Source: Promethearchaeota archaeon
GTDB taxonomy: Archaea; Asgardarchaeota; Lokiarchaeia; Sigyniarchaeales; SOKP01
DNA length: 64,000 bases
Reading direction: 5' to 3'
Assembly: GCA_048938005.1 (NCBI GenBank)
Contig: JBHLMQ010000006.1
Location: 1-64,000 of the forward strand
Notes under the pieces: generated by a model
The model's input: the letters and a program-made list of their open reading frames with translations, nothing else
Told to the model about the DNA's origin: nothing
The model's database searches: none
Program-made: the position numbers and the translations under genes
In this document: piece after piece, positions 17,001 through 56,100 of the stretch
Numbering within the stretch: the first letter of the stretch is position 1
Layout: every line of letters begins with the position of its first letter

Positions 17001-19304
17001 TAGTATTTCTCCATCTCGATAAGCTTTTCTTATAGCGATTTCATGTTCACGTACCATTTTCTCTGCTCTATTGACATTTTCAGAAATGAATTTTTCGAAA
17101 TTTTCTTCTTCTTTCTTCTTTTCTAAAATTTTTAACTTTTCCTCATCTACTCCAATTTTTACACCAACTTTATGCATTTCTTTGAGTGCCTTTTCTCTTT
17201 CTGCCTTTTGAGCCTCAACTTCTCGTAATTTATTATCTTGTTCTAATTTTTGAGTATAAAAATTTATTTGATTATTATATGCATCAACTTCTTCTTTTCT
17301 TCCCTTTTCAAGTAACATTCGGTTTACTCTTTCATAAATACCGATAATCTTTAAATATGGAGGATTTTCTGCCAATTTTCCTTTCTTTATAGCTTTTTTC
17401 ATAGCTTTTTCATATTCTCGAGCCATTTTTTCTGCTCGATTTATCATCACCTCAATAACACTGTCAAAATCTTCTTTTTCTTTCTCCAATCTTCTCTGTT
17501 CTTCAATTAATTTCAATCTTTCAGTATCTAAACCAATAATAGGTTCTTCTTTTTTAACTTTTAATTTCTCCTCAACTTCTATCTTTTTCCTTGCTTTATC
17601 AGCCTCTATTTGTCTCAATTTTTTATCCTTTTCCAATTTTTCTCTATAATTATTTATTTGACTTGAAATGATTGTTACATCAGTATCCCAACTCCTCTCT
17701 AATGCCAATTGTTTAGCTTTTGCTAAAATATTGATGATTTCTGAATATGGACATTTTAATTCAAATTTACCTTTCCGCAATGCTACTTCATACTCTCTTC
17801 CTAAACGCTCAGCTCTATCTGTGATTTCATCAATTTGATTCCTAACATTTTGAATTTCTATAGCAATTTGACGTTGCTCTTCTATGACTCTTTGTTGTTC
17901 CTCACTTATTCCAATTTCTATATCTTCTCTCTTAACTTTTAGCACTTCCTCAGCTTCTTCTTTTCTTTTTGTTTTTTCTGCTTCAATTTGTCTTACTTTT
18001 TTATCTTGTTCAAACTTTTGAATATAGACATTTATCGTATCATCATAAATAGTAGCTTCACTATTCCAACCCTTTTCGACAAGTAATTCTTTTATTCTTT
18101 TATATATTTCAATAACTTTAGGATATTCACATTCCTCTACTATATTTCCTTCTTTAATAGCTTTCTGCATTGCTAATTCGTAGTTACGCGCCAATCTAGC
18201 AGCTTCAGTGGCCATATTATCGATTTGGGCTTTAAAGAATTCCTGTTCCATTTTTTGAAGTTCTATTCCTCTAATTCTTTCCAGTCTAGCTAATCTTTCC
18301 TGTTCCTCAATTTCTTCTACTCGATGATCAACAATTTCTTCTTTTTGTAATTCGGTTTTAATTTTTTCCTCAGATTTTAATTTTTCTTTTTCAATTTCCT
18401 CAATTTTTAATTTTTCTTTTTCTAATTGAGATATAGTATCTTGAATTTTTTTAATCTCATAAGTCCAGTTCAATTTTTTGAACAAATTCGCGCCATCTTC
18501 GTACAATTTAAGGGCTTGATCATATTCATGAATTCTTACCATTTCTACTGCTTGATCTAATAGCTCATAAGCTCTAGATGAGATATCCTCTTCTCGTTTT
18601 TTCGCTTCAAGAAAATGTTTTAATTTTTCTTCTTTTAATTGCTCTTCGCTTACTTTCTCATCAGGTTCTAGTTCTGTTACTGGTTCTTCAACAATCTCTT
18701 CCTTCTTAATAACTCGTAAGAATTCCGCTTTTTTATTATAACAATCTTCAATTAAAGTATATAATCTTTCTATTTCATCAGGTTTGTTAGCATCTTCAAG
18801 GATTTTCTCGACTTCATCGTATTTATTAAAAGCTTCCTCAAATTTATTAATATTAACTAATTCTTGAGCTTCAACTATCAATTGGTTTGATTTTCTGATC
18901 CATTCTTCTTCGCTTTTAGCTTCTTTACTGACTTCAAATTCTTCAATTTCTCCAGGTTCTTCAATTATTTCAATGCCTTTTTCAGATTCTATTTCAACTT
19001 CTCTGAATGCTTTTTCTTTAAGCACATATATTTCTGATATTTTTTCATTTATAGCTTTAATTTCTGCTTCTCTATTAATCTGGGTATATAAACCAATTGC
19101 TTGTCGTAAAATCTCTATACCATCATCATAATACTGTGTCTCTATCAGATTAATAGCATGCTCAACTAATTCATAAGCTTCAGAAGCAATTTCTTCCTCC
19201 ATTTCCATCATATCAGAAAAAAATGCTTCTTTTGTAGGATCAAACTCGTCCTCATCAAATTCTAGTTCGAAATCTTCCTCTCTCTTCTCTTCCATAAATA
19301 TCAA
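14013..19304 (-). CDS. Giant (1763 aa) charged helical repeat protein, MIT/TPR-like modules plus coiled coil
   Basis: About 13 modules of ~120-135 aa with pattern 'AE...REYE...PY.E.IEIY......GW..(Q/E)A..Y..QI..Y.EKLE' separated by E/K/R-rich linkers; ATG at 19295 is possible. Confidence 0.85.
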   Translation of the reverse strand: MIFMEEKREEDFELEFDEDEFDPTKEAFFSDMMEMEEEIASEAYELVEHAINLIETQYYDDGIEILRQAIGLYTQINREAEIKAINEKISEIYVLKEKAFREVEIESEKGIEIIEEPGEIEEFEVSKEAKSEEEWIRKSNQLIVEAQELVNINKFEEAFNKYDEVEKILEDANKPDEIERLYTLIEDCYNKKAEFLRVIKKEEIVEEPVTELEPDEKVSEEQLKEEKLKHFLEAKKREEDISSRAYELLDQAVEMVRIHEYDQALKLYEDGANLFKKLNWTYEIKKIQDTISQLEKEKLKIEEIEKEKLKSEEKIKTELQKEEIVDHRVEEIEEQERLARLERIRGIELQKMEQEFFKAQIDNMATEAARLARNYELAMQKAIKEGNIVEECEYPKVIEIYKRIKELLVEKGWNSEATIYDDTINVYIQKFEQDKKVRQIEAEKTKRKEEAEEVLKVKREDIEIGISEEQQRVIEEQRQIAIEIQNVRNQIDEITDRAERLGREYEVALRKGKFELKCPYSEIINILAKAKQLALERSWDTDVTIISSQINNYREKLEKDKKLRQIEADKARKKIEVEEKLKVKKEEPIIGLDTERLKLIEEQRRLEKEKEDFDSVIEVMINRAEKMAREYEKAMKKAIKKGKLAENPPYLKIIGIYERVNRMLLEKGRKEEVDAYNNQINFYTQKLEQDNKLREVEAQKAEREKALKEMHKVGVKIGVDEEKLKILEKKKEEENFEKFISENVNRAEKMVREHEIAIRKAYRDGEILESTPYAEVIEIYKQLREKVYARGWREQAEIYANQIKIYKEKLEKHEKLLEIEAQKAQKEKDIEEMYKVSKKVEVDEEKIKVIEKKKDEEDFEKFLSENVNRAEKMVREHEIAMRKAYRDGEILESTPYTEVIEIYKQLREKVYARGWREQAEIYANQIRIYQEKLEKHEKLLEIEAQKAEREKAIEEMHKVSVKVEVDQKKLKAVERKKEEKEFEKYITEMVNKGEKLERDFDSAMKKALKKGEVIEQTPYPEIIELYKQLQERVYSRGWKKQSQIYLEQIRIYQEKLEKHEKLLEIEAQKVQKEKELEEMLKAGKKEGKSVKPEKIKEIEAEEKEEDIILDEAMNLIDEAEKAVKSYELSIQKDVLVYQSPYNKAIYNYEEARELFKKIGWNDEANRLINTIKFYKDKKEKDDKLREIEQKKLEKPEIELEVEQIELEKDFIERQKRLQEFEEKQKDADEAATAIFSMIQNAERLAQEYELKLKSGVFDFEAPYEKIIEIYRDARKQFESINWKEESAKLVDTIKFYKEKLAKDKKIRALEAEKVKKREEELLHQQRLLEQERIEKEKLLQERKETLDLKKEKVALFETQKDKAFRLMDQAKHELRENNFEKAIEYYNESENIFADIEWLEGINMVRDSVAMIKNKKKAIEMEQKAAEERKIEELKMEEQLEEKLFETQELRRKQQEEKRKEFLLIQREKERERQISEEAYVLLEEGTALMDRKKFTEAYDKYINARELFKKIFWEREVSRINNELLFKLKREQKKAEILEDVKIKKIEEEKKRAILKEQEKRERKELEKRRKEEKRRLARKELEMEITKKIERAHKLIENFQYNEGVLLLREETERLTKLGKYDDIVKINEQIENIKTEAGIPLITLIVSINDLQNEKFKNAFKALDRAHISVANNQFKKAISELTEAKFKLENLKIGKKILKEIDKKINEFRAKVRKKPIEEIPKVKEEALKDERELLRVRIAARRKERRKKVLDLLGKRNE
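16102..17208. repeat. Intragenic tandem repeat with 369-bp (123-codon) period, about 3 copies
   Basis: Matching anchors at 16102, 16471, 16840 and 17209; near-identical blocks at 16622 and 16991. Confidence 0.9.
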
Positions 19305-42792: not shown

Positions 42793-45700
42793 TTAGAAAA
42801 AATATATGTAATAAATCTGTAGAGCAAGCAATATTCCAAATAGAACAAGCAAAATAATTAAAATTATAAGGGTATAAAACCTCCACTTAATTGAAATATT
42901 TTCACGTTTTTCTTTAAAACTTATATAGGGTAACAAAATAGCCCCCATTATCCAAATTGATATCCAAATAGTGAAAATATACCAAACCCATGTTATAAAA
43001 GCAAACAAAAGAACAATAATGCTACCCCAGCTGATGATTAAACGCAACATTCTACGCCGAAACATTAAATCAGCATCTTCAGATTTTTTAGAAGGCATAA
43101 TAGAGTAAAGTATCCCAAAAATAGGAAAAACTAGTACTATTGAATGAACCAACCAGAGTGTAAGTATGTATGTAAGGATACCAAAAAATATTGATACAAA
43201 GAGGCTAAATATTATCCAAACATATTGAAAATTTTTCTTTAGGAAACTGACAATTTTAATAAATGTGTTCTTAATTAAGATTTTGACTTTTCTAAAGAAT
43301 ATTGTAAGATAATCAACTAATTTATTGAAGAGTTCTTTTAATTCTTCCAAAAGGAAAATAAATGGATAAACCATAACTGTAATGATAAAGATTGCTAATC
43401 CTGCAATCCAAGATAAAGAAATAAAATATATGATTATGCTTAATAAAACAAATATTATTACCCAAAAGGTGAGAGCTAAAATAGAATGTTCTTTAAAGGG
43501 TTTTATCTTTATTCCTAAGAACATTATAAAAACTAGAGAAGAGATACTTAAATTTAAAAAGATATTGAAATCTGGAATAAAATTCAATAATAAAAATACA
43601 TCAATAGATAATAGACCTCCAATTATTAGAAATGAGTAAGATCTCAAGGATTTTCGTAATGTTTCTTTTAGAACGCCTATGAAGTTATCGATATATGTAA
43701 GAATAAACATAATGAAAAGAGAGGCTAATGTTAAATTAAGGATGAGAAATGGATTTAAACTAGCAAAATATAATGGCCATGTCATGAAATTGAGATATGA
43801 CAAGCCAATTAGAGAAACTCTAATTTTCTCTTTGTTAGAAACAACTAATTGCCAAAAAAGTAATAATTTAAAAAGATAAGCGAACTCAAGGATTAAGATA
43901 AAAATGATTATAGGTATAACTGTTAATAAAAATGTAATAGAAAAAATATTATAAAGCCATATTAAATAAGTTGATGTAAATATCATAATTAAAATCCAAG
44001 ACATTACTTTTACATAACGAGTAGCTATTCCTAAAAACTTTAATAGATAACTATCTATAATCATTAATAGATGGATTAAAAGGCTTAAAATCAATAGTAT
44101 CAATGGGATTGGAAATCCCTGCAAAAATAATGCTTGGAATATTGAAATGGATAATGTAATGTAGAAACCCGTGCCTATTGTATGTTGAACATATGTTTGG
44201 ATTTTATTAAGAGCATCTTTGGTATTAGGGTAAAAATCCTTTAATGAGGCAAAAAGAGAATAATTAGTATAAAATTGCATTAGTATAAAAATAAAGATTT
44301 CCAAACTAAGCAGAAAAGGATATTGAGATATCAAATTGTTTAAAATTAGAAATAACATTAATGAAATTGTAAAAAAGCTGATAGTATGAACTAATGATGC
44401 ATAACTTCTCTTTACTTTCTTTATTGAATAAATATCTAACAATGTTAGTACAAATAATATTGATACAGATACCATTATACTTTCAATCAAATCAAAGCCT
44501 AAAAATTCACTAACCAAGCCATACATGATGATGCTTATTTCAAAATATAATATTAATAGCATGAATGAATTTATCTTCGGTAAAAAATTAGGATATTTTT
44601 GCTTATCTATCATAATATTAATGTATTTAATAGAATTGAATGAAAAGCATATCTCTATTAATATTATTAAATTAATCATGAAAAAGTTTAAATAATCTAA
44701 TATTGTGAAGATGTAAAAAAGACTTATAGCTAATAATCCTTGAAATAGGACGAAAAGAATAAATTCAATCCAATTTTTCAAACGTTTCTCAATTTTGACG
44801 AAAAAGAAACTTAGAGCATATAATAGAATAGTAGCGTTTTGAAATAACAAAGAATAGTAGGGAAAACCTTTTAATCCTTCAAAAAGTAGTATTAGTCCAT
44901 CAGAGATTAAAGAAGCTATATAAAAGGAACTCCATATAAATGAATTATAAATAAGGATTAAACGAGCTGTAGAGATCTTCTCTTTCGAAATATCTAAGTA
45001 AGATAAAAAATGGAGAAAAATAAGATTTAAAAGAGAGATTGTTAATACTAAAAGGAAAACATTTAAATGAAACAAATAAAGGAAAAGAGACAACGTATTG
45101 CTGAATATAAACCACGAACATACAATAAATTTATTTCGAGTTGAATTAAATAACAAATAGAAATAATTTCTATCCATTAAGTAACTCTCAATAAATGCTA
45201 TTCCACTAACTACTAATAAAAAAGAATAAATTGAAATTGCTAAATTGATAAAAACTAAATATAGAAGAAGATTTACAGCTAAAGCAAAAGGAATTAAAAG
45301 ATATAAAACAAAACTAATTTTATTGAAATAACGGAGTGGATTTTTTATTTTTATATCTAATTTTGATTTTTCAATATATTTTAAACAGAATAAGAATAAA
45401 AATGGCCAAATTATTAAAAAATCACAAATCTGGTAAACTATCAAAATTTGAGTAAATAGAAATAGCTTTAATAGATTTGGCAAAATAATTGCAATAAATA
45501 AGGAAATACAAATTGAGTTTAATAGAAAACCTGTAAGATTGAGCCATTTAACTTGATTCTCATCCTCAAAAAGCTTCAATATGCTATTTCTTTTTTCTGG
45601 TGTTTCAGCCTTCACTAAATTTTTAAATATATTAATTAAAATCTGAAAAGAAATGAGATAAAGTATCGCCCAAGTTAAAAACCATAAGGGTTGAATAAAC

Positions 45701-48700
45701 TCAAATATTAAGAGCAATTCTAAAATAAGTGTTGATATTGGAATTGGAATACCAAACCAGAGCATATATCGATATTCAGTGAATATAAAGTATAAGAAAA
45801 CGATAAACACTGAAGAAAACGTAGAAATTAAAATAGCAGGGGATGCTTTAAATATGATGGAAATTAAGGATGTCACTGAGAGGGATGCTCCAACTGCCAC
45901 TATTAAATACGGAATTATTTTATTAATACGGAATTTCATTTTATAACGATTAAATATGAAAAAGGAACATCCACCAACGGTTAATGCTAATGAAAAAGCA
46001 AACAATAATAAGCCCGGAAAAAAATTGAATGTGTTGAATGTCAACCATGAAAAATTAAAAATTAGAATCCAAGAGAGGCATAAATTTATTATTCTTTTGG
46101 GTAATTGTGTGTATTTAGAGGAAAAAAGACTGAATCCAATCACAATAAGACTAATGTTAACAGAAAAAATGGGATCCAAAATTATAGAATAAAGAACAAA
46201 GTAGATTGTTAAGAAAATTCCTAATAAAGTTATGAAATATGCACCTATTAAGATAATGCCAATTGATCTTATATTTGGGAAAAACGAATAAACAATCAAA
46301 AATAAGCCAATAACTAATATGTCAATAGAAATTGTAATTTCTGGTAAGATGCCGATTTCCATCAGATAAAATAACAAAAATCCAGCATTAATAACAGTTA
46401 ATGGGAATATCCATAAAATCGAAATAATTTTCCAATATTTAAATATTGCCAATAATGGCATTAATAAGATTGCTGAAAACAGACCAAAAGATAAATTTGT
46501 TAATAAAATGTCAGTCGGAAATAGATATTGACTTACCCAATATAATAAGAATAAGCTTTCACCCCAAATAATAAAAACAATTAGAGAAAAGTATTTCTTT
46601 ATTTTACTATACACTACTGGCAAGAAAAATAAGGAGCAAATTATAATTGATATTATTAGTGAGCCATCTACACTAAAGGCTCCGAATTGTAATGATTTAG
46701 TTAAAACATCTATTCCTGTGAAACTTTGATAAATAATATAAAAGTTAACAAAGGGAAGAATATTCCAAGCATACCACCCAGATTTCCAAATCGCCCAAGA
46801 TATTCTCCACTGGTAAATACCAATTGAAAGATAATATAAGAAAACTCCAAAATTAATTGCAACTATTAGAGGAACAACAGATAAAAGGGGCAAATCCAAG
46901 GATGCGATGATAAGAAAGTATAAAAAGGTTGGAAAAGAGAGCACAATTGATATAAGCACGATATAAAAGGATATCTTTCTAAATCGTACTGGTGAATTAT
47001 TATATAGAAGAACAAATCCAAAACCAGTTATACTCATTGTTAGTGTAAAAGTTAGAATAGGATTATATAATCCAAAAATCAGATTGTTAAAAAACCAAGA
47101 ATATGACATAAAGCTAGTAATGTCAAAGATAGCTAAAACCACACATGGTCTAATAAACCATTTATAACGCTCATCTTTTAGACGATAGAAGAAAAATCCT
47201 ATGAATAATAAAAAAATTAGAATTGAGATTGTTATGTTATAGATAATGAGGATATTAGTAAACGTAATTAGAGAGACAAAAGACAAGAGAGAAATGAGAA
47301 AATATAATGCAAATTTCTCTAAATTGTTATTTTTTTTAATGTTTATTAAAATCGAGAAAAATAAAGCCCAACTCATAGTTAAGAGGGATATAATGACGAG
47401 AATACTAAATCCCAATATGACACTATACATGCTTAAAATCGCTAGAACTTCAATAAATGTTATGTAGCTTAGTAGAAAATACGATACAAATCGAAAAATG
47501 GGGATTATACTCCTTTGAGAAAGAATTAGCGCATATGATATTAATGTAAGAAAAATTGTAAGAATTGAGTTAAAGTAAAGAAGACTTACTAGTAATAACA
47601 CTGATGGTATATAAAATTGGTATAAAGTAAAAACAGATCTTTCTTCTACAGTTTTGTTAAATCTTAAAAAGGAATAATATAGAAATAAAATTACATTAAC
47701 CGTAATAACTGTTATCTGTAATAAAAGATTCTGATTAAAGAAAGGGATGATAGCTGTTAGATTGTATAAAATTTCTAAATATATGCTTAATATTGAAATT
47801 ATAAATGTTATTAATGTTATTTTCTTCATTAAGAGTTGATTTTTGGCGGAAATATACTTTAAATTCCTTAGAATGTAAAGACTCAGAGGAGTTAAAAGAA
47901 TAAAAGTTAATGAAAACAAAAATATTTTATTTACAATGAAGAATTGGGGAATATAGAATTCAATTAGAGAAAGTGTTAAAGTGCACAAGATTATCTTAAT
48001 AACCAACCATGCTGTTAACTCTAAAATAATCTTTAACTGCGTTAATTTAAATTCTATCAGATTATCAAAAACAATCACAAACAAAAGAAATATTGTTAGA
48101 AAAAACCCTATTAACATCGATATGTAAAATACCAAATTAGGTAAGATAAACGCAAATAAATTAGTTGAGAGAATCAAAAATGTAAAAGTAAATGATATAG
48201 AAACAACTATTCCATAAACGATTATATCATGTAAATAATTAAATATCTTTAATTCCGGAAAATAATCAGATGATAACTTTAGTGTATACATACTTAAAAC
48301 AAAAAACATAAATAAAGAACAACTTATTATTAAAAGGGTAAAAGGGTTTAGCGTTATTGTTACGATAAAGATTGATGCTACATAATAAGATAAAAGCACT
48401 GTAAATAAAAACCAAGAAATAATTCCAGATAATTTGAAGCGTTTAATATAACTCTCTTTTAATTTAATTCTTACACTTAATAATTCAGAAATCTTTAAAA
48501 AACTAAATAAAAGGAATATTGTTGTAGTTAATATGAGAATTATATTTAATTTTAATCCAAATCTCGTTAAATCTAAACTAATAATTGTTGGTAAAGAAAT
48601 AATCAAACAAGATAAGACAATAAAGTCATAAATCGTTAATTTTTTAATCCATTCTAAATTAAAATATTCTTTTTTATATGAATAATAGAAAAGGAAAAGC

Positions 48701-51315
48701 CACGAAAATAGTAATAAGATTAACGGTAAGATTATACCATAAAAAGTCCCTATTAATAAGAAAAAGGGATAATAAAATATCGTTGTTGCACTTATACAAA
48801 ATGCTATGATTATTTGTAATTTCAGAAAAAATCTTACTCTATTCTCCCTAATTTTGACTTTCTTAGATATATAAAAGATACTTGTAAAAATTAAAAATAC
48901 GATATATAGCGTACAATTTATTACAGTTATTATCAAAAAGATTATATCAAAATATAAATTCAAATAGAATAATTCCAATCCTATAATAGTTGGAATTAAT
49001 GATATCGTGGTTGATAATAATATACTATTTATGATAAGAGATTTAGATATAAATTTATGGTATAATCTTTTCTTTCTTAAATATAATATTGGAAGGTAAA
49101 GAATTATACTCGAAACTAACAGTGGAACTATTAAAACATAAAGAGTACCAATTGTTAACAATAAAAAATAGTAGAATACTATCACGGTTGTATATAGCAG
49201 AATAAAACTGTTTATCTTTATATAAAGACCTTCAGAAAAGATCTCTTTTTTTGAAAAGATGTTGATTATTCCACAAACTAATGCCAATGATAAATATGTT
49301 GAATAAATTATGTTCTGAACTAGCGAAACCACTTGAAAGACTTGAAAGACACTCAAAAATAATAAGCAAAATACAGAAAAAAGTTCCACTGCTAATAAGT
49401 AAGAATTGATTTTAACATATTTTTTAAATTTAGATTCGGTTATTCTTTCCAATTTCAAACCAAACTTTAATATAAAATAATAAAAAATAGACGTAAAAAG
49501 GCAATCTAACGCTATTATAATAAAGTATGTAGTAAATAGGGATATTATTAACAGAGATATAAAAAAATCAAATAAAAATATCCAAAGTGAAAAATAGCAG
49601 AATTTCAAGAAATCTTTTAGGGGATACACATGTAAGCCATAATTTAAGTAAAGAAAAAATATGAAAACAATAGGAAATAAAACTGATGATATCAATATTC
49701 CTTGTAGAAAAGGAATTAGTTCAATCAAGAAATAGGTTCTAAATAATATAAAAGCAATAACAAATAATTCGACTAAAAAGCTATTAAATAATACAAAGAT
49801 CCTGAATAATTTCGGGGATTTTCTGTAGAAGTATCTCACACCTAAAACATACTGAGAGATTAAAAAAATTATTGAAATTATTAATGAGTGTAAGAGAACA
49901 TTTGAAATGAAAATTAATAATGGGTTTGATGTAAAAGTTGTTGGAAAGAAATAATACATAATCATTGGAAAGAAATAATACATAACCAAAGAAAAACTAG
50001 CAACGGCTAGCAAATTTTGAAAGATTAGAATGTTATCTTTAAGGAAATAATCTAATTTAACAAACACTTGCAAAACCAAATACAAAGAAATGCAAAATAC
50101 CAAAAAATTCAATAAGATGGTCTCTATTGTAGGTAGTATTATTCCAAAAGAGATGTAAATCAAGAGAGCAATAGAGTTTAATAAAATTACATATTTATTA
50201 TACTTCTTTGAACATAGTTCATACTTCTGTTCATAGTGAAGTAGTATATAAATAAATGGAAGGATAATTAAGATTAAGTATGGAATTTGGATTAGAAAAG
50301 AGAACAATGTAATTAATAGAATTAAAATTCCAGATAAATATGAATTGTATTTTTGATATTTAATATTTAGTGGGGGAGGACTTTCCTTAGACTCTTCAAT
50401 TTTATCAGACTTGTCATATAGATCAAGTTTAGAACCATAATAATAATTAACATAGAACCTAGATTTAAAATAGAATAAAATGAATATCAGTGTTAAGAAA
50501 GAGCTATTTAGGAGTTCTGCTAAGAGATTAAATGTTATAACAATAACTAATGGCATTTGAACTAATATAAAGAAAATAAGGCTAACTAAGGAAATTACAA
50601 AATTTTTTTTAAATAATATTAAGTCTCTTAAAAATGGTTTATTTTTAATTATGGAATCTTTTATTCTTTTTATTTGACTCTTAGTACCTGTTAATGTGAT
50701 GATATAAAATAGTAAGTTTGTTATAAGAGCATAAAGCCAGGAGAAATTAGTGGAAGCAGTAAAAGCTAAAAAAATAATATGAGTAACATAATTAACGAAA
50801 ATTAAGAAATTATATGGCTGCTTAACCATTAATGCAAAATTTTCGCTATGTTTGAATTCTCCATCTTCTATATTAAAAAAATCAATTGGTTGGAAATAAT
50901 AATAGTAGTAAACAATGTTGAAAAGAACTGCATAACTAATTAATGGAAGGAAAATAAATGAATCAAATGGTGAACCAAGTATAAAAATAGGAGTTGTAAC
51001 AAATGAAAGGATAGAAATTAAAAAAAGGACATGAATTCTAGCAGTAAGATTATTCCTTTTGTTAAGAAAAAAGGGATTATTTCTGTATTTATCATAAGCC
51101 TTATAGAAAAAAAGCAAAGTAAACACAAAACATTCTACTGATAAAGATAATGTAATGAATAGACCAACTCGAGAAAAATTTAGGATTAAAAAAAGTACAA
51201 CTGCTGCTATTAAAGGAGCAATAATTAAATAAAATGAAAACCACCAAAATTTCTGAAGTAGTTCCGTAGCCTTCGTTATTCTTTCTTTTGAATTATCGGT
51301 AGTTTTTGATCTCAT
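42793..51315 (-). CDS. Giant polytopic membrane protein (~2840 aa), unknown function
   Basis: Uninterrupted 8.5-kb ORF made almost entirely of hydrophobic ~20-aa segments with short K/R-rich loops; ATG at 51315 (TTG at 51327 is possible). Confidence 0.85.
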   Translation of the reverse strand: MRSKTTDNSKERITKATELLQKFWWFSFYLIIAPLIAAVVLFLILNFSRVGLFITLSLSVECFVFTLLFFYKAYDKYRNNPFFLNKRNNLTARIHVLFLISILSFVTTPIFILGSPFDSFIFLPLISYAVLFNIVYYYYYFQPIDFFNIEDGEFKHSENFALMVKQPYNFLIFVNYVTHIIFLAFTASTNFSWLYALITNLLFYIITLTGTKSQIKRIKDSIIKNKPFLRDLILFKKNFVISLVSLIFFILVQMPLVIVITFNLLAELLNSSFLTLIFILFYFKSRFYVNYYYGSKLDLYDKSDKIEESKESPPPLNIKYQKYNSYLSGILILLITLFSFLIQIPYLILIILPFIYILLHYEQKYELCSKKYNKYVILLNSIALLIYISFGIILPTIETILLNFLVFCISLYLVLQVFVKLDYFLKDNILIFQNLLAVASFSLVMYYFFPMIMYYFFPTTFTSNPLLIFISNVLLHSLIISIIFLISQYVLGVRYFYRKSPKLFRIFVLFNSFLVELFVIAFILFRTYFLIELIPFLQGILISSVLFPIVFIFFLYLNYGLHVYPLKDFLKFCYFSLWIFLFDFFISLLIISLFTTYFIIIALDCLFTSIFYYFILKFGLKLERITESKFKKYVKINSYLLAVELFSVFCLLFLSVFQVFQVVSLVQNIIYSTYLSLALVCGIINIFSKKEIFSEGLYIKINSFILLYTTVIVFYYFLLLTIGTLYVLIVPLLVSSIILYLPILYLRKKRLYHKFISKSLIINSILLSTTISLIPTIIGLELFYLNLYFDIIFLIITVINCTLYIVFLIFTSIFYISKKVKIRENRVRFFLKLQIIIAFCISATTIFYYPFFLLIGTFYGIILPLILLLFSWLFLFYYSYKKEYFNLEWIKKLTIYDFIVLSCLIISLPTIISLDLTRFGLKLNIILILTTTIFLLFSFLKISELLSVRIKLKESYIKRFKLSGIISWFLFTVLLSYYVASIFIVTITLNPFTLLIISCSLFMFFVLSMYTLKLSSDYFPELKIFNYLHDIIVYGIVVSISFTFTFLILSTNLFAFILPNLVFYISMLIGFFLTIFLLFVIVFDNLIEFKLTQLKIILELTAWLVIKIILCTLTLSLIEFYIPQFFIVNKIFLFSLTFILLTPLSLYILRNLKYISAKNQLLMKKITLITFIISILSIYLEILYNLTAIIPFFNQNLLLQITVITVNVILFLYYSFLRFNKTVEERSVFTLYQFYIPSVLLLVSLLYFNSILTIFLTLISYALILSQRSIIPIFRFVSYFLLSYITFIEVLAILSMYSVILGFSILVIISLLTMSWALFFSILINIKKNNNLEKFALYFLISLLSFVSLITFTNILIIYNITISILIFLLFIGFFFYRLKDERYKWFIRPCVVLAIFDITSFMSYSWFFNNLIFGLYNPILTFTLTMSITGFGFVLLYNNSPVRFRKISFYIVLISIVLSFPTFLYFLIIASLDLPLLSVVPLIVAINFGVFLYYLSIGIYQWRISWAIWKSGWYAWNILPFVNFYIIYQSFTGIDVLTKSLQFGAFSVDGSLIISIIICSLFFLPVVYSKIKKYFSLIVFIIWGESLFLLYWVSQYLFPTDILLTNLSFGLFSAILLMPLLAIFKYWKIISILWIFPLTVINAGFLLFYLMEIGILPEITISIDILVIGLFLIVYSFFPNIRSIGIILIGAYFITLLGIFLTIYFVLYSIILDPIFSVNISLIVIGFSLFSSKYTQLPKRIINLCLSWILIFNFSWLTFNTFNFFPGLLLFAFSLALTVGGCSFFIFNRYKMKFRINKIIPYLIVAVGASLSVTSLISIIFKASPAILISTFSSVFIVFLYFIFTEYRYMLWFGIPIPISTLILELLLIFEFIQPLWFLTWAILYLISFQILINIFKNLVKAETPEKRNSILKLFEDENQVKWLNLTGFLLNSICISLFIAIILPNLLKLFLFTQILIVYQICDFLIIWPFLFLFCLKYIEKSKLDIKIKNPLRYFNKISFVLYLLIPFALAVNLLLYLVFINLAISIYSFLLVVSGIAFIESYLMDRNYFYLLFNSTRNKFIVCSWFIFSNTLSLFLYLFHLNVFLLVLTISLLNLIFLHFLSYLDISKEKISTARLILIYNSFIWSSFYIASLISDGLILLFEGLKGFPYYSLLFQNATILLYALSFFFVKIEKRLKNWIEFILFVLFQGLLAISLFYIFTILDYLNFFMINLIILIEICFSFNSIKYINIMIDKQKYPNFLPKINSFMLLILYFEISIIMYGLVSEFLGFDLIESIMVSVSILFVLTLLDIYSIKKVKRSYASLVHTISFFTISLMLFLILNNLISQYPFLLSLEIFIFILMQFYTNYSLFASLKDFYPNTKDALNKIQTYVQHTIGTGFYITLSISIFQALFLQGFPIPLILLILSLLIHLLMIIDSYLLKFLGIATRYVKVMSWILIMIFTSTYLIWLYNIFSITFLLTVIPIIIFILILEFAYLFKLLLFWQLVVSNKEKIRVSLIGLSYLNFMTWPLYFASLNPFLILNLTLASLFIMFILTYIDNFIGVLKETLRKSLRSYSFLIIGGLLSIDVFLLLNFIPDFNIFLNLSISSLVFIMFLGIKIKPFKEHSILALTFWVIIFVLLSIIIYFISLSWIAGLAIFIITVMVYPFIFLLEELKELFNKLVDYLTIFFRKVKILIKNTFIKIVSFLKKNFQYVWIIFSLFVSIFFGILTYILTLWLVHSIVLVFPIFGILYSIMPSKKSEDADLMFRRRMLRLIISWGSIIVLLFAFITWVWYIFTIWISIWIMGAILLPYISFKEKRENISIKWRFYTLIILIILLVLFGILLALQIYYIYFF
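49941..49985. repeat. 21-bp direct repeat with 24-bp period (in-frame duplication MYYFFP-MI-MYYFFP)
   Basis: TTGGAAAGAAATAATACATAA at 49941 and 49965. Confidence 0.85.
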
Positions 51316-51508
51316 CGCCCAACACAATTTTTTAATTGTATCTTGAGAGTAATGAAAATATGTGTTTATAAATATATTATAAGTATGTTTACTAGTTTGT
51401 TAGAGTATTTAAAGATTAATTCGAACTTTTACCAGTAAAAGTCGAGAAAATAGTAGTAAAACTTTTATTTTGGTGGTAGAAATTAGCGAATGTAAAAAAA
51501 CTGGTGGA

Positions 51509-52840
51509 TTATTTGAAATTAGGTAAATAACTTTTTTGTTGTTCAAACATTTCATTATAGATGTTTTCTGCCATTTCAAAACTCCCAACATTCGGATCAA
51601 TTGCTAAACAAGCAACAGCGATATCTTTAGATCTTTTTAAAACTGCTTCAACACACAAATCTTGGATTGACGCTTCAATGCGAAGTAACGCAGCAATATT
51701 TTTAGGTAAAGGACCTATATTAACACCATGAGCACCCTCCTTATTTATTACTGCAGAACACTCAATTATTGAATCTTGCGGCAAATTTTCAATAAGATTA
51801 TTGTTTGGAATATTAACAGCAAATTCATAGGAATTCTCATCATTAATGATTGCTTCTATTATTGGGATCGCTCTTTCTCCAGACAGTTCTTTTGATAAGA
51901 TTCCTTTTCTAGGATATCTTCCTCTTTTAAGCCTTTTATAATAATTACGGAATCTCTCATATATCATTTGTCCTTCATTGTCTATAAAATCAATCCAATC
52001 TATCATATCCTGGGTTTCTGTAAATTCCTCCCCAAATTGTAAGTATTCTCCAATATGATTATCCCCTACATATGGAAAATACCCAAATCTCTTATAAATT
52101 TCAAATGTAAGTGTAGAAAACTCGAATCTATCCTCATGTTCTTTGAAATATTTCATGGCATTAGTATTAAATGAAGGCATTAAATTCTTTCCTGTTAGTA
52201 AATCCTCCAAGCCTAATAAAAATGCAAAATGATTAAAACCTGCTACTTTCATTTTTAACTCTCTTATCGATTTTTTAAACATTTTAGGCAAATGTCTGAC
52301 CATAAACTCGATTTGATGACATAAACCAATAAACTTTAACTTTTTTACACTTCTTTTAATTGCTAAGCATACTCGAGATAATGGATTTGAAAAGTTGATG
52401 AAAAAAGCATTTGGACAAATTTTTTCGGCCTCTTTAACAATCTCAATAATTGGGGGAATTATTCTCCAAGCATGAAAAGTACCACCGGATCCTCCGCACT
52501 CCCCTAAAATCTGTGTTGACCCATATTTTCTTGGTATTTCATAGTCTTGTCGCCATAATTCCATTCGATTTCCAACTTCTATTGAATTAATTATGAAATC
52601 GGCGTTTTTAAGAGCTGTAGTTCTATCAATCGTTCTTTCTAGATTGAATTTATTATTTATTCTATCGTTTTCTACCATTAATAACTCATAAATCATTTCT
52701 AACTTCTCTTTATTAGTATCATGAAGTACTATTGTTGAACCTTCTAACACATCACTTAAATAAATATCATTAAACATTGGAGGTCCAAACGAAGTTGAAC
52801 CTGCTCCAATCAATACAATTTTCTTATTCATGTCGCTCAC
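51509..52840 (-). CDS. Glycoside hydrolase family 4 (NAD+-dependent alpha-galactosidase/glucosidase)
   Basis: 'KIVLIGAGSTSF', 'GECGGSGG', 'INFSNP', 'GLCH', 'AGFNHF'. Confidence 0.92.
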   Translation of the reverse strand: MSDMNKKIVLIGAGSTSFGPPMFNDIYLSDVLEGSTIVLHDTNKEKLEMIYELLMVENDRINNKFNLERTIDRTTALKNADFIINSIEVGNRMELWRQDYEIPRKYGSTQILGECGGSGGTFHAWRIIPPIIEIVKEAEKICPNAFFINFSNPLSRVCLAIKRSVKKLKFIGLCHQIEFMVRHLPKMFKKSIRELKMKVAGFNHFAFLLGLEDLLTGKNLMPSFNTNAMKYFKEHEDRFEFSTLTFEIYKRFGYFPYVGDNHIGEYLQFGEEFTETQDMIDWIDFIDNEGQMIYERFRNYYKRLKRGRYPRKGILSKELSGERAIPIIEAIINDENSYEFAVNIPNNNLIENLPQDSIIECSAVINKEGAHGVNIGPLPKNIAALLRIEASIQDLCVEAVLKRSKDIAVACLAIDPNVGSFEMAENIYNEMFEQQKSYLPNFK

Positions 52841-53187
52841 AAACTAGTTTATTGGCAAATGATTTAATAATTTACTTATAAGTATAATTCAACAAATTCC
52901 GATAAATGGGAAGTAAATGGGAAAGTTTATAAGGTTATTCTAACTTTTCCTAATTAATGAGTTTTTCACAGTATACTATGGATTATTGGTGTAAGATACA
53001 TATTACAGTATTACCTTTAATCCGTGGTATTAAGAGAGAATAAATCAAAAAATTTTGACCTCTTTCTTATAACTTTTACTGATTTGTTCTCTTTTATACT
53101 GCATCTCAATAATTATTATATGAAATAGGTCGTAATTAGATTGATCCTCCCAGTGAAGAATTCAATTAAAAATGGAGGTGAAGTGTA

Positions 53188-53367
53188 CTGGAAAAAGAAT
53201 CAGATAAAATTGATCTGATATTAGATTATTATAAAGATTGGGATTCTTATAATGCTCCAGTTATGATGATGTTTAATGCGCCAAATGAGCTTTCAGAAAG
53301 TTTAGAGGCGGAGGATAGCAAAAAGTTGGAGTATTTAAGGAAAAAGTATCAAAATTCTTCGAAATGA
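53188..53367 (+). CDS. Putative 59-aa acidic microprotein with CTG start (not in ORF track)
   Basis: Perfect GGAGGTGA SD at 53174-53181, 6 nt before CTG; (M)EKESDKIDLILDYYKDWDSYNAPVMMMFNAPNELSESLEAEDSKKLEYLRKKYQNSSK. Confidence 0.55.
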   Translation: MEKESDKIDLILDYYKDWDSYNAPVMMMFNAPNELSESLEAEDSKKLEYLRKKYQNSSK

Positions 53368-53423
53368 TGACAATCTTTTTAGTTTTTATAATATAACTCT
53401 TTTTTTTTTATTTTTGTTATATT

Positions 53424-54599
53424 TTAAGTAAATAATGTTTCAATTCTTTCTAATGCTTGCCTAATCCGTTCTTCGGGTTGTGTTAAAGCAAATCTCACAA
53501 ATCCCTCTCCATATTGACCAAAACCTATTCCAGGTGTGATTATTACTCCTATATCAATTAATTTCTTTACAAAATCCATGCAGCTCATTTCACAGTACTT
53601 CTCTGGAATTTTAGTCCATACATAAAATGTTGCTTGAGGTTTGTCTGTTGTCCACCCTATATCATTTAAACCTTTAATTAGAATATCTCTCCGCTTCTCG
53701 TAAGTTTTTACTGTGCTTTCGACAACTTCTGGTTTTTTTTCTGATTTATATTCATTTAAACCTTTAATTACAGCTTTTTGTATAAAAATCGGACAACCCG
53801 AGTCGATCTGAGATTTGATCTTTCTTAACCCTTTTATAATATCTCTATTTCCTGCCACCCAACCACATCGGAATCCTGTCATATTGAACATTTTGGATGC
53901 ACTGTTAATCTCAATATGGTTTTGATCTATTTGTAATATGGATGGAGCAATATAATTACCAAATGTAAACTCTGAATAAGGATTATCATAAACAATAAAA
54001 AAATCATAATCCTCAGCATAATCCACTGCTTTTTTCAAGAATTCTTTTGGCATTATAGCACCAGTAGGATTATTTGGATAATTCAAATACATTAATTTAG
54101 CTTTTTTAAGAATTTTTTTATCAATTATATCTAAATCAGGCAAAAAATTATTTTCTTTCAATAAAGGCATTGAATATGGATTTGCATCACACAATTTTGT
54201 TGCTCCATTCTCATAAACTGGATATCCCGGATTAGGACAAAGAACTATATCTTCTGGATTAATAAAGGCTCTTGCAATATTCGCAACACCCTCCTTTCCT
54301 CCAATTACATTTGAAATCTCATCTTGAGGATCTAATTCCAGTTTAAATCTTACTTTATACCATCTTGCTACAGCTTCCCTAAAATCTTGTTCTCCCATAC
54401 TAGCAGGATAATTTTGATTCTCTGGAATTCTAACTTGCCTTATCATCTCGTTAATTATCAATTCTGGGGTAGTTAAATCAGGATCTCCAATCCCTAAAGG
54501 AATTAAATCAATCCGTTTTTTTCTTTTTTCTTCTAATAATTGCTCTATCTCTACAAAAATATATGTTGGGAGCCTTTTTACCCTCTCAGCATAATTCAT
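53424..54599 (-). CDS. PLP-dependent aminotransferase class I/II (LL-diaminopimelate aminotransferase-like)
   Basis: 'LGIGDPD', 'LNYPNNPTGA', 'SASKMFNMTGFRCG', 'PGIGFGQYGEGFVRFAL'. Confidence 0.88.
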   Translation of the reverse strand: MNYAERVKRLPTYIFVEIEQLLEEKRKKRIDLIPLGIGDPDLTTPELIINEMIRQVRIPENQNYPASMGEQDFREAVARWYKVRFKLELDPQDEISNVIGGKEGVANIARAFINPEDIVLCPNPGYPVYENGATKLCDANPYSMPLLKENNFLPDLDIIDKKILKKAKLMYLNYPNNPTGAIMPKEFLKKAVDYAEDYDFFIVYDNPYSEFTFGNYIAPSILQIDQNHIEINSASKMFNMTGFRCGWVAGNRDIIKGLRKIKSQIDSGCPIFIQKAVIKGLNEYKSEKKPEVVESTVKTYEKRRDILIKGLNDIGWTTDKPQATFYVWTKIPEKYCEMSCMDFVKKLIDIGVIITPGIGFGQYGEGFVRFALTQPEERIRQALERIETLFT

Positions 54600-54728
54600 C
54601 TTACTTTAAAACACCACAAATTTATTGATCATTTAAGAAAAGTATTGTCTAAAATCTTCTAAAATTGAAAAATTTAACTATTAACAAAAGGTTATGTTTA
54701 ATTTCAATGTAATTGTTCTATATTCTTT

Positions 54729-54763
54729 ATAAAAAAAAATATTGAATATCCATGGATATTCAA
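54729..54763 (-). terminator. Perfect 22-bp palindrome followed by a U-tract on the minus strand
   Basis: TTGAATATCCATGGATATTCAA (54742-54763) lies just after the MFS stop and is followed by TATTTTTTTTT on the minus strand. Confidence 0.6.
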
Positions 54764-54771
54764 AAAACTAC

Positions 54772-56100
54772 TTATAAATTTGGTTTTATTTCATATTGAT
54801 TACGATCCAAGAAGAGAAATGGGATTATTGCTAAACTCGATAGAATCATCATGGTTATAAATATTATTCCAAATATCACTATTACGTCAGCAGTTAAACC
54901 CGCGATTGCATCAAATATTAGCCCCGTAAAAATCAAGCCAAGTTGCGTGCCTAAATTGATAAACGTTGTACATATTGAATAGTAAGTACTAGGTGCTTCA
55001 GGATATTGTTGTGAATATTGTGTAGCAATAGCTGAAAAAGAAGAATTACTCCATCCACTTGAAGATCCGACCAAAAAGGCGAAAATTAATAAAATCATAC
55101 TATATGTTTTTGGAATTGGTATTAGAAGTAAAGCTAATGATCCCACAGTCAATAATATTGATGCAAAAAAAGCAGTTCTTCTTGAAATTTTGTCAGCAAT
55201 CATTCCTCCAATAAGAGCTCCTGCAAACACACCAATTCCTGTTAAAAATGTTATGATTGCTTGAGGAGGGTATAATGTAATATCTTCCTCCAACACACTT
55301 GTTGTTGCTCCAGCTGCTTCAACGTATCCTGATTGGATTAGAATAAATAAAGCTAAAAAGACGAATATAACACCATCAACGATTGCCATGAAAAGTGAGA
55401 AAATGTAAACTTTCCAATTCTCACGTTTTTTAAACATTACTTTTAGATTAGCAACTAGACTTATATCTTCAACTATAGGCTTATGTTTAATTATGAGAGT
55501 TAATGTTGAAAATATTATTGTCAAAACTCCTAGAGATATAAATACAAAAAATATATGAATAACACCTAGTAAGAGCAATATCAATGGACCTCCAACTATT
55601 ATTCCCACTGATCTACATGCCCAAACCATTCCTGTCGTACGTCCAAGAAGTTCTTTAGGACAAATTTCGATAATAAAACCATCCATTGCAGTATCTGCCA
55701 TTGCTACTCCTAATACAACAAAAAATCCTGCATATGTGAATAATGCCATCGCAGAATCGGGATTTATTGAGATTGTTAATAATAGAATTGTGATAATAAT
55801 CCACATTAGGCCAGAAAATGAAGCGCCCCCTATTATCCATGGTTTTCGCCTTCCAAACTTTCTTGATCTTATTTTATCTCCCAATATACCATAAATTAGC
55901 TTTAATATAAATGGAATAAATACGAAACTAAGCATAAATGATAATGCTGCTAAATCAACAGTTCCGAGAGAGTAAAGATAAATTGGTATTACTGCTGTAA
56001 AGATACTCTGATTTATACCCTGTATGAAATAATTGAGTGAGAAAATACCAGTATAGCTAAATTTATATTCAATATTACTGTTTTCCATAATAATACCCAA
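54772..56100 (-). CDS. MFS transporter (AmpG/BT1-like)
   Basis: 'YFIQGI', 'FGRRKPWI', 'ADTAMDGF', 'GGMIADKISRR'. Confidence 0.85.
   Translation of the reverse strand: MGIIMENSNIEYKFSYTGIFSLNYFIQGINQSIFTAVIPIYLYSLGTVDLAALSFMLSFVFIPFILKLIYGILGDKIRSRKFGRRKPWIIGGASFSGLMWIIITILLLTISINPDSAMALFTYAGFFVVLGVAMADTAMDGFIIEICPKELLGRTTGMVWACRSVGIIVGGPLILLLLGVIHIFFVFISLGVLTIIFSTLTLIIKHKPIVEDISLVANLKVMFKKRENWKVYIFSLFMAIVDGVIFVFLALFILIQSGYVEAAGATTSVLEEDITLYPPQAIITFLTGIGVFAGALIGGMIADKISRRTAFFASILLTVGSLALLLIPIPKTYSMILLIFAFLVGSSSGWSNSSFSAIATQYSQQYPEAPSTYYSICTTFINLGTQLGLIFTGLIFDAIAGLTADVIVIFGIIFITMMILSSLAIIPFLFLDRNQYEIKPNL

Follow-up and report, generated by a model that had tools for sequence, protein, structure and literature searches.

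What does the longest open frame in this Lokiarchaeia genome encode, and what could a chain of 2840 residues built almost entirely of membrane helices do for the cell? The gene lies on the minus strand of the window, by which we mean the whole 64,000-nucleotide stretch of DNA analysed. The first-pass annotation had read 42793..51315 as coding for a protein of about 2840 aa, and so it does, as one intact gene of 2,840 codons.

42793..51315, minus strand: gene for the giant membrane protein; start ATG at 51315, stop codon at 42793-42795, 2840 aa
51316..51508, minus strand: AT-rich spacer of 193 bp separating the start codon from the GH4 gene upstream

The full open frame (42793..51327, minus strand) counts 2844 codons from an in-frame TTG at 51327, a start that would extend the protein by 4 residues. 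Residues are numbered from this TTG throughout, and the ATG is residue 5; the length from the ATG equals that of a 100%-identical database record (P0002). Judged by eye, the 193-bp spacer probably contains the gene's own promoter. The remaining five frames across the same interval contain 135-392 stops each, and the probability of meeting no stop in 2844 codons, calculated from base composition, is ~1e-92. The coding strand is rich in T (44.5%); more than half of all codons (53%) have T in second place, which alone is enough to specify hydrophobic residues.

Colinear homologues are present in 117 of the 161 Lokiarchaeia genomes searched, with an intact colinear frame across many genomes at 21-85% identity, which upholds the earlier claim that the stop-free frame is under selection. 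The gene is real, conserved among Loki-type Asgard archaea and kept single-copy in Lokiarchaeia. Genome matches fall in families f1, f2, f28, f29 and f30, and closed genomes of the sister family contain homologues. The first-pass annotation had framed the distribution as one across Asgard archaea; this is too wide, as no credible homologue was found in 225 genomes of other Asgard families. A single match beyond Lokiarchaeia (G363, E = 2.1e-4) was judged spurious; its 45-aa open frame contains a TAG. In a check of search sensitivity, a query with the full-length protein recovered sister family f2 in 0 of 3 cases and a query with the hub alone (see below) in 11 of 14; because the full-length query missed f2, the full-length phylum search was not used as evidence of absence. 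The gene was not found in several near-complete genomes of the same family, e.g., G138 (99%), G144 (98%) and G183 (97%), which suggests an accessory rather than an essential role for the giant protein. Genera g6, g8, g60, g61 and g62 of that family likewise gave no match.

Relatives within Lokiarchaeia span 2,400 to ~4,900 residues and 75-138 hydrophobic segments. Length and segment number rise together (r = 0.98; 61 members with 75-116 segments), and distant homologues have 2615 to ~4920 aa and 88-138 segments. The copy described here, with 2840 aa and two tandem-block copies, is at the short end of this range. Homologues in the databases (n = 116; 1564-4977 aa, identity down to 30%) are labelled as hypothetical or as ‘membrane protein of unknown function’, with one ‘zinc ribbon domain-containing’ protein. 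Members share a colinear N-terminal arm, a Trp-rich hub with four invariant residues, a C-terminal arm and a C-terminal W-R motif. The order of N-arm, hub and C-arm is kept in the distant homologues, where both arms are longer and where profile mapping was colinear wherever more than one part matched. Two family alignments were used, A1 with 61 members and A6 with 13 sequences from across the class.

The number of membrane helices was estimated by our own hydropathy segmentation, which gave 80-93 hydrophobic segments over 24 parameter settings (87 at default), together holding about two thirds of the chain. The same routine returned 12 segments for the neighbouring MFS transporter, and 4, 1 and 3 false positives in three neighbouring soluble or mostly soluble proteins. 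The many-helix nature seen on first inspection therefore holds, and the 70-85 segments then counted by eye were slightly too few. The reported absence of a soluble domain was likewise correct: Pfam returned 0 families for the protein (E ≤ 0.01), and no loop is longer than 41 aa, the longest being a basic one. Across 61 members loop length reaches a ceiling of 86 aa, with a loop of 84-86 aa in P0111, where it contains a zinc ribbon, and in P0114.

The loops, described at first simply as short and basic, follow a sharper pattern, in which K/R-rich loops (n = 45; mean 17.6 aa; 168 K+R averaged over the alignment) alternate with K/R-poor loops (n = 42; mean 5.7 aa, maximum 15 aa; 7.9 K+R averaged over the alignment), and the alternation is interrupted at two places only. 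The autocorrelation of the K/R profile has its top peak at lag 60 (0.385) and more peaks at 128, 195 and 256, compared with a maximum of 0.16 in 200 block shuffles. The hairpin period is ~62 residues, with K/R-free turns, mostly of 3-7 residues, between the K/R-rich loops. This alternation and its period point to ~44 membrane-spanning hairpins with the N-terminus inside. There is thus strong support for a cytoplasmic-membrane protein with a predicted ~44 consecutive membrane-spanning hairpins (~88 helices), and for a predicted topology with the N-terminus inside, outer turns of 3-7 residues and basic cytoplasmic loops of 10-41 residues. A cytoplasmic position of the K/R-rich side fits a zinc ribbon inserted in a K/R-rich loop of P0111 (a below-cutoff Pfam match).

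43225..43347, minus strand: residues 2661-2701, a basic amphipathic helix that makes up the longest loop (41 aa)

The long amphipathic stretch noted earlier near the C-terminus is evident in the helical hydrophobic moment of residues 2665-2682 (0.61 vs. a protein-wide 99th percentile of 0.50). The basic amphipathic helix of residues 2661-2701 is probably placed on the cytoplasmic face; E2661 is kept in 98% of family members.

A layout in three parts, consisting of an N-terminal arm, a Trp/Pro/Asn-rich hub (~1220-1930) and a C-terminal arm, is strongly supported, as is the composition of the arms from duplicated four-helix blocks (~120-130 aa), which individual species have gained or lost.

50428..51315, minus strand: N-terminal module of ~8 helices (residues 5-300), ending at a basic 40-aa loop (294-333)
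48820..49182, minus strand: tandem four-helix block in the N-terminal arm, copy 1 (residues 716-836; hhalign, unit HMM)
48430..48783, minus strand: tandem four-helix block, copy 2 (residues 849-966; hhalign, unit HMM)
45538..47661, minus strand: hub (residues 1223-1930), where conservation across the family is highest, modelled with AlphaFold2 as 24 long helices
46708..46878, minus strand: Trp-rich hub signature (residues 1484-1540), from the class-wide alignment
43516..45561, minus strand: C-terminal arm (residues 1923-2604; hhalign), made of repeated blocks that have diverged, period ~250 aa
42871..42921, minus strand: C-terminal loop on the cytoplasmic side (residues 2803-2819), conserved, carrying a K-W-R-F motif and the invariant E2806

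The N-terminal module is split off in at least 7 genomes of the sister genus g4, where it forms an ORF of its own (316-337 aa) immediately ahead of the remaining gene. Composition-corrected BLASTP of the protein against itself gave zero internal repeats at E ≤ 1e-3, and profile-profile comparison was therefore needed to reveal them. A scan of 231 window pairs with hhalign, for which reversed-profile controls scored at most 28.4, placed the tandem block pair far above the others (717-840 vs. 850-970, score 137, probability 99.3), and the unit HMM matched copy 1 (716-836) with E = 4.9e-35. Further pairs were recovered within the C-terminal half (1923-2111 vs. 2178-2356, 82.8; 2041-2248 vs. 2292-2504, 68.5) and between the arms (971-1177 vs. 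2071-2260, 53.8). A possible third tandem copy (residues 593-705) scored 11.8, against 12.2 for its reversed control, and was not counted. Extra copies of the block enter at an insertion hot-spot near residue ~798, with 34 extra-copy matches among 61 aligned members. Such copy-number variation of the arms is also compatible with a channel-like or an enzyme-like hub. Of the small in-frame duplications mentioned in the first-pass annotation, three 9-nt tandem arrays were found (e.g., 49331-49350); the larger ~120-aa tandem duplication had been overlooked.

The AlphaFold2 model of the hub (708 of 2844 residues; pLDDT 81.6, pTM 0.66) has 24 long helices of 17-31 aa, vs. 23 segments by hydropathy; the additional helix (1224-1249) mends one of the two breaks in the loop alternation. 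In the class-wide alignment (A6) W1514, W1521, P1525 and N1528 are invariant, and the longest K/R-poor, outside loop of the protein (15 aa, residues 1540-1554) follows right after this signature. In the C-terminal arm, the conserved acidic residues E2263 and D2576 are predicted to lie inside the membrane, with E2481 near a helix end. Conserved polar residues deep in predicted helices comprise N1492, N1528, N1647, K1111, E2263, D2576 and Q2196. The motif of the C-terminal loop takes the form K/Y/Q-W-R across the family, and a K-W-R-F-type motif precedes the last helix in five of seven distant homologues. Positions conserved in at least 90% of sequences (n = 122) are enriched in Trp (5.7-fold), Pro (3.3-fold), Tyr (2.6-fold) and Gly (2.4-fold), and none of them is His or Cys.

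The giant protein fits no known family and, as judged through the hub model, no known fold. In 23 members scanned (16 including the query at E ≤ 1, and 7 distant ones at E ≤ 0.1) no Pfam family was established; isolated weak single matches to DUF6526 (P0086) and MGT5A_N (P0101) were discounted. The family profile had 0 sequence matches in the PDB at E ≤ 1, and Foldseek against the PDB gave 0 matches for the hub model at E ≤ 0.001. Its best rows were soluble solenoids (SKI complex, FANCD2/FANCI, nucleoporins) with TM-scores ≤ 0.19, none of them significant (E ≥ 0.23, rmsd 20-43 Å). VIA-align wide returned no convincing match to the hub model. The ESM Atlas feature search led to unnamed clusters only, the best 30 without a common family. 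In the literature listings and matched passages that our searches returned, there was no description of the family, and within this coverage the earlier view of the protein as undescribed agrees with the Pfam, PDB, Foldseek and VIA-align results.

A relation to proteins of the DUF2339 type had been proposed for checking. DUF2339 proteins (PF10101) are bacterial many-helix membrane proteins of unknown function, several times shorter than the giant protein, and both have a long run of membrane helices without a soluble domain. DUF2339 is also the nearest Pfam-bearing ESM Atlas cluster, at 0.84, a value to be taken as a lead only; PF10101 itself stayed unmatched, both in the 16 members (cutoff E ≤ 1) and in the 7 distant ones (cutoff E ≤ 0.1). 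Alpha-solenoids (TPR, HEAT, ARM) offer an architectural analogy, being likewise stacks of antiparallel helix pairs that differ in repeat number from one species to another. The helices of the giant protein differ in being hydrophobic, of membrane-spanning length and in obeying the positive-inside rule. Reticulon and REEP proteins, to which there was no Pfam match, are defined by the reticulon homology domain and by short hairpin wedges that stay within the bilayer without crossing it. The predicted hairpins of the giant protein each pair segments of 18-26 aa through an outside turn, and these segments, like the 17-31-aa helices of the AlphaFold2 hub model, have the length needed for a full membrane span.

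Gene neighbourhoods were compared at 10 orthologous loci. Upstream are genes for an aminotransferase, a GH4 glycosidase, an MFS transporter and a ferredoxin-domain protein, and downstream either a Liv-type ABC transporter or DNA polymerase B. Spacers to the neighbouring genes measure 170-193 bp. No conserved functional partner gene was found among these loci, and the neighbours are unrelated housekeeping or ordinary metabolic genes.

We favour, with a probability of roughly 0.4, a size-adjustable structural scaffold inside the membrane over an enzyme or a classical transporter. A structural rather than a catalytic role would fit the conservation of Trp, Pro, Tyr and Gly, the lack of conserved His and Cys, the lack of a Pfam family, the short loops and the missing partner gene. 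In such a scaffold, an area of bilayer would be filled and ordered by the helix array, and the basic loops and the C-terminal amphipathic helix would attach to the inner leaflet; the specific contact, e.g., self-association or lipid binding, would come from the hub. A bulky inside combined with a minimal outside would make an asymmetry that could favour membrane bending. The first-pass idea of a membrane mega-scaffold fits the block copy-number variation and the pattern of conserved residues, and is retained here as an interpretation; nothing was found in favour of its alternative suggestion of a giant translocator.

The strongest competitor, which we regard as unlikely, sees in the protein a giant channel or transporter that would move ions, lipids or polymers through the hub, acting alone or as an oligomer, with the arms as anchors or gates. 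The polar residues deep in predicted helices (invariant N1528, with N1492, N1647, K1111, E2263 and D2576) could line its conduction path, as in transporters, and the only sizeable outside loop is in the hub, beside the invariant Trp/Pro/Asn signature. Yet the conserved residues are mostly aromatic, Pro and Gly, without the conserved charged network of known ion-translocating modules. Pfam showed no transporter family in 23 members, the PDB profile search had 0 matches at E ≤ 1, and the VIA-align rows that might speak for a channel or transporter cover single small bundles and lie below the tool's stated noise level for helical models (~13). The adjacent Liv ABC and MFS genes are complete by themselves, and the ABC set is conserved within genus g1 only.

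It is improbable that the protein is a membrane-embedded enzyme (e.g., a GT-C-like transferase, polymerase or flippase) with lipids or lipid-linked glycans as substrates and with long membrane anchors attached. Such a reading could draw on invariant or near-invariant acidic residues at helix ends or in loops (E366, D2425, D2547, E2806) and on the upstream GH4 glycosidase and aminotransferase genes, whose order is conserved over four genera. Set against these are the absence of any enzyme family in Pfam and of His or Cys at the 122 conserved positions, and K/R-poor loops too short to provide an outside loop or domain that might hold a substrate. The spacers of 170-193 bp, the ordinary metabolic nature of the neighbours and the different context in genus g3 weaken the argument from gene order.

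Mechanosensing, one of the first-pass suggestions, gained nothing from the analysis, and a mechanosensor akin to Piezo, with curved arms of four-helix units that sense tension and gate a central pore, is very improbable. Piezo has ~38 helices per chain, and its blades consist of nine four-helix units. Piezo1 and Piezo2 resemble the giant protein in being very large polytopic chains with arms of repeated four-helix units and amphipathic helices on the cytoplasmic side, but the predicted helix number of the giant protein is over twice that of Piezo, its best-conserved region sits in the middle of the chain instead of at the C-terminus, and its outside loops of ≤15 aa make an extracellular cap impossible. 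No Piezo Pfam domain was detected in the 23 members scanned, and no Piezo chain is among the matches listed by Foldseek (PDB) or VIA-align wide for the hub model. The resemblance is one of building principle only, not of homology. Finally, a non-functional origin, as a chance or decaying frame or an annotation artefact in T-rich DNA whose second-position T alone gives hydrophobic residues, is effectively refuted by conservation, given the odds against so long an open frame, its colinear survival in many genomes with invariant Trp, Pro and Asn, and a positive-inside alternation that is nearly perfect over 87 loops.

Tentatively, we suggest that the family may represent a new class of membrane protein, a covalently linked ‘solenoid inside the membrane’ of ~90-140 helices in one chain of adjustable size, in which a hub and two arms would shape, stiffen or partition the membrane (e.g., in the long protrusions of these archaea), or in which the hub would form a tension-gated conduit. 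If the predicted topology is right, the largest polytopic proteins characterised so far, with Piezo (~38 helices) as the example, have less than half as many helices as this family. If the solenoid interpretation is true as well, this would be the most helix-rich polypeptide known, built on a structural principle absent from solved membrane proteins.

Asgard archaea are the group closest to the origin of eukaryotes and are noted for unusual cell shapes. The gene raises the questions of how a chain of ~90 helices and roughly 330 kDa is inserted and folded, what role a protein with almost no mass beyond the bilayer plays, and why it has been retained, single-copy, in one Asgard class only. With its conserved hub and variable arms, the family is a natural system for studying the evolution of repeats inside membranes.

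The largest gene in the window occupies the minus strand and encodes a protein consisting almost entirely of hydrophobic segments:

42793..51327, minus strand: giant membrane protein ORF, 2844 codons from TTG

An ATG at residue 5 (window 51315; residues are numbered from the TTG) yields a 2840-aa product that is 100% identical to a database record of the same length (P0002), confirming the coordinates assigned in the first-pass annotation. No ORF in this 3.72-Mb genome is longer, and no other ORF above 834 aa has a mean hydropathy exceeding 0.7 (giant protein: GRAVY 1.17; Leu 18%, Ile 16%, Phe 12%). The coding strand contains 44.5% T and 25% G+C; based on this composition a stop is expected about every 14 codons, and the chance of 2844 codons without one is ~1e-92. 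The remaining five frames across the gene carry 135-392 stops each. The gene is genuine and subject to selection, and the reading of the ORF as an artefact is extremely improbable. Small duplications had been noted from the sequence, and the DNA does contain three 9-nt tandem duplications.

Membrane-spanning segments were counted by dynamic-programming segmentation of Kyte-Doolittle hydropathy under 24 parameter settings, using either the query alone or hydropathy averaged over 61 homologues. The giant protein has 80-93 hydrophobic segments across these settings (87 at default). As controls, the neighbouring MFS transporter gave 12 segments and two LivH/M-type permeases 10 each; the GH4 enzyme gave 4, the aminotransferase 1 and the solute-binding protein 3, so the method over-calls in soluble sequence. 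An AlphaFold2 model of residues 1223-1930 (43 sequences; mean pLDDT 81.6, pTM 0.66), which cover the conserved, Trp/Pro-rich middle of the protein (the hub), contains 24 predicted helices of 17-31 residues, compared to 23 segments placed by hydropathy, and thus backs the helix count independently.

The strongest argument for the topology is the pattern of loop charge. Forty-five K/R-rich loops (mean 17.6 aa; Lys+Arg total, averaged over the alignment, 168) alternate strictly with 42 K/R-poor loops (mean 5.7 aa, maximum 15 aa, Lys+Arg total 7.9), with only two breaks (294/360 and 1222/1270), the second of which is mended by an additional AlphaFold2 helix at 1224-1249. Autocorrelation of the K/R profile peaks at lag 60 (0.385), then at 128, 195 and 256; the maximum in 200 block shuffles was 0.16. 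Since positively charged loops of membrane proteins are retained on the inside (the positive-inside rule), this alternation points to ~44 membrane-spanning hairpins, with the N-terminus predicted inside, the C-terminus outside, tight outer turns and basic cytoplasmic loops. The longest loop of the query (41 aa, residues 2661-2701) is basic and amphipathic, and its hydrophobic moment of 0.61 (protein-wide 99th percentile, 0.50) bears out the amphipathic stretch recognized near the C-terminus in the first-pass annotation. Loops in the 61 members do not exceed 86 aa. In two divergent members, P0111 and P0114, the counterpart of the K/R-rich loop at query residues 142-173 has grown to 84-86 aa; no other soluble element was seen in the family. 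Residues 168-190 of P0111 within this loop give zinc-ribbon matches that are weak and do not reach the Pfam cutoff, and their position fits a cytoplasmic K/R-rich side.

The 61 full-length homologues align colinearly. Their lengths (2408-3754 aa) correlate with segment number (75-116, median 88; r = 0.98), and the length variation clusters at a few points: behind residues 798, 2344 and 2509, a sequence carries on average 94, 23 and 12 aa of inserted residues, respectively. Conservation is highest at 1300-1900 (mean majority-residue frequency 0.52-0.67 vs. 0.42-0.55 elsewhere). Profile-profile comparison of 231 pairs of 240-residue windows detected the following internal repeats; scores in the reversed-profile control reached at most 28.4.

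Internal repeats of the giant protein (residues, score)
717-840 vs. 850-970, score 137 (probability 99.3)
1923-2111 vs. 2178-2356, score 82.8
2041-2248 vs. 2292-2504, score 68.5
971-1177 vs. 2071-2260, score 53.8
2048-2224 vs. 2421-2601, score 45.8
862-1052 vs. 1964-2141, score 43.9

An HMM of the ~120-aa four-helix block finds two copies in the query (716-836 and 849-966) and 34 extra copies among the 61 members, at the insertion hot-spot. The protein is therefore built as a conserved hub between two arms (N-arm and C-arm) of four-helix blocks, two hairpins each, which are duplicated and lost. A 2980-aa homologue from family f29 of the Lokiarchaeia (L038:2323-11262, genome G316) carries a C-arm block (profile positions 2188-2327) three to four times in tandem, indicating that the C-arm also grows by block duplication. 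In at least seven genomes of the sister genus g4, an ORF of its own (316-337 aa) encodes the first ~300 residues and lies directly before the rest:

G071:C14:20334-21239: split N-terminal ORF, likewise in G065, G162, G113, G125, G104 and G153

The division falls at the long loop 294-333, and represents a natural split at a predicted cytoplasmic loop; unsplit copies also occur in this genus (G121, G057).

A Pfam scan of 23 members recovered no family, searching PDB sequences with the profile of the family returned no matches at E ≤ 1, and Foldseek with the hub model gave none at E ≤ 0.001 (the top rows were soluble alpha-solenoids with TM-scores ≤ 0.19). The ESM Atlas returned only unnamed clusters, and DUF2339 scored 0.84. 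The passages of the literature that were searched contain no description of such a giant membrane protein. Relative to described families and solved folds the protein is of a new kind, and the suggestion of an undescribed membrane mega-protein is supported.

A word-indexed protein search yielded 116 homologues (1564-4977 aa), with Asgard labels wherever named, no Pfam domains and no informative names. With the hub as query, an exhaustive phmmer run against 1.84 billion representative proteins recovered only 51, all of them members of this family or fragments. Searching whole genomes with the hub gave matches in 117 of 161 Lokiarchaeia: 101/134 in the query's own family (f1), 11/14 in the sister family (f2), and 1/1, 2/4, 1/3, 0/2 and 0/2 in f28, f29, f30, f31 and f32, respectively. 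In a phylum-wide sample of 301 genomes, the hub profile matched 50/68 in f1, 6/7 in f2 and 1/225 in the other 28 families; this single match (E 2e-4), to a frame of 45 aa interrupted by a stop, is regarded as spurious. The full-length query missed f2 (0/3), so that its misses carry no weight as absence. The gene was not found in nearly complete genomes of its own family (e.g., G138, G144 and G183, with 99%, 98% and 97% completeness), and is thus probably dispensable.

Seven distant homologues, retrieved as stop-to-stop frames, span lengths from 2615 aa up to 4752 aa or more (4920 aa in one case), with GRAVY values of 0.85-1.21 and 88-138 segments. The family profile maps to the hub in all seven, a W-R motif precedes the last helix in five, and no Pfam family was found at E ≤ 0.1. 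Those with an arm match keep the order N-arm, hub, C-arm, with both arms expanded. In the sister family, a closed genome of 6.0 Mb (G213) has two paralogues; one has a frame of 4920 aa with at least 138 hydrophobic segments, the other a frame of 3151 aa:

G213:C1:3672502-3674073 and G213:C1:3431547-3433451: the two paralogues (loci L033, L034)

All of the giant gene's neighbours in the window share its strand but are set apart by 170-193 bp spacers. On the upstream side come a GH4 glycosidase, a class I/II aminotransferase, an MFS transporter and a ferredoxin-domain protein, and on the downstream side a complete Liv-type ABC transporter and then HEAT-repeat proteins.

51509-56100, minus strand: MFS, aminotransferase, (GH4), in that order before the giant gene; same order at loci L013, L015, L017, L020, L023, L026, L027 and L030
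35634-37281, minus strand: adjacent pair of HEAT-repeat proteins (197 and 353 aa), immediately following the Liv-type ABC genes
14016-19304, minus strand: 1763-aa ORF, extremely hydrophilic (GRAVY -0.99)

Among 10 orthologous loci, the aminotransferase is upstream in 8, GH4 in 5, and the ABC set is present only in 4 from genus g1; DNA polymerase B lies downstream in other genera, and the context in genus g3 is wholly different. The MFS-aminotransferase-(GH4)-giant order is kept across four genera of the family. Gene order is conserved among relatives, with no functional partner seen and no functional link evident between the MFS, aminotransferase or GH4 genes and the giant gene. The 353-aa HEAT-repeat protein matches HEAT_2 at E 1.6e-62, and two further genomes of the query's genus conserve the HEAT pair as a single, fused ORF of 473-486 aa (cluster c8). 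The 1763-aa ORF, the opposite extreme to the membrane giant, sits in the window's strongest GC and AT skew.

The giant protein combines a hairpin-repeat topology with a hub-and-arms layout and copy-number-variable blocks, and matches no known family. The 122 positions conserved at ≥90% are enriched in Trp (5.7-fold), Pro (3.3-fold), Tyr (2.6-fold), Gly (2.4-fold) and Glu (2.1-fold), and include no His or Cys. Invariant residues in a class-wide hub alignment (13 sequences, down to 21% identity) are F1413, W1514, W1521, P1525, N1528, G1555, P1570, W1588, W1632, W1639 and P1684. A structural role fits better than catalysis or classical transport because block gain and loss are tolerated, Trp, Pro, Tyr and Gly dominate the conserved positions, conserved His and Cys are lacking, there is no outside domain, and the gene appears dispensable. 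Conserved polar residues lie deep inside predicted helices (N1492, N1528, N1647, K1111, Q2196, E2263 and D2576), and D2425 and E2806 are invariant in the 61-member alignment; the buried Asn, Glu and Asp residues are the reason for retaining a channel or transporter centred on the hub as a lesser possibility. A lipid or glycan enzyme, which the same absence of conserved His and Cys disfavours, is improbable, and a Piezo-like sensor, as raised by the comparison in the first-pass annotation, found no support and is slightly less probable still. The remaining probability falls to functions outside all of these readings. Our preferred reading, held with low confidence (probability about 0.4), is a scaffold: the giant protein would form a size-adjustable platform within the membrane that may grip the inner leaflet through its amphipathic helix and basic loops and make the specific contact through its hub.
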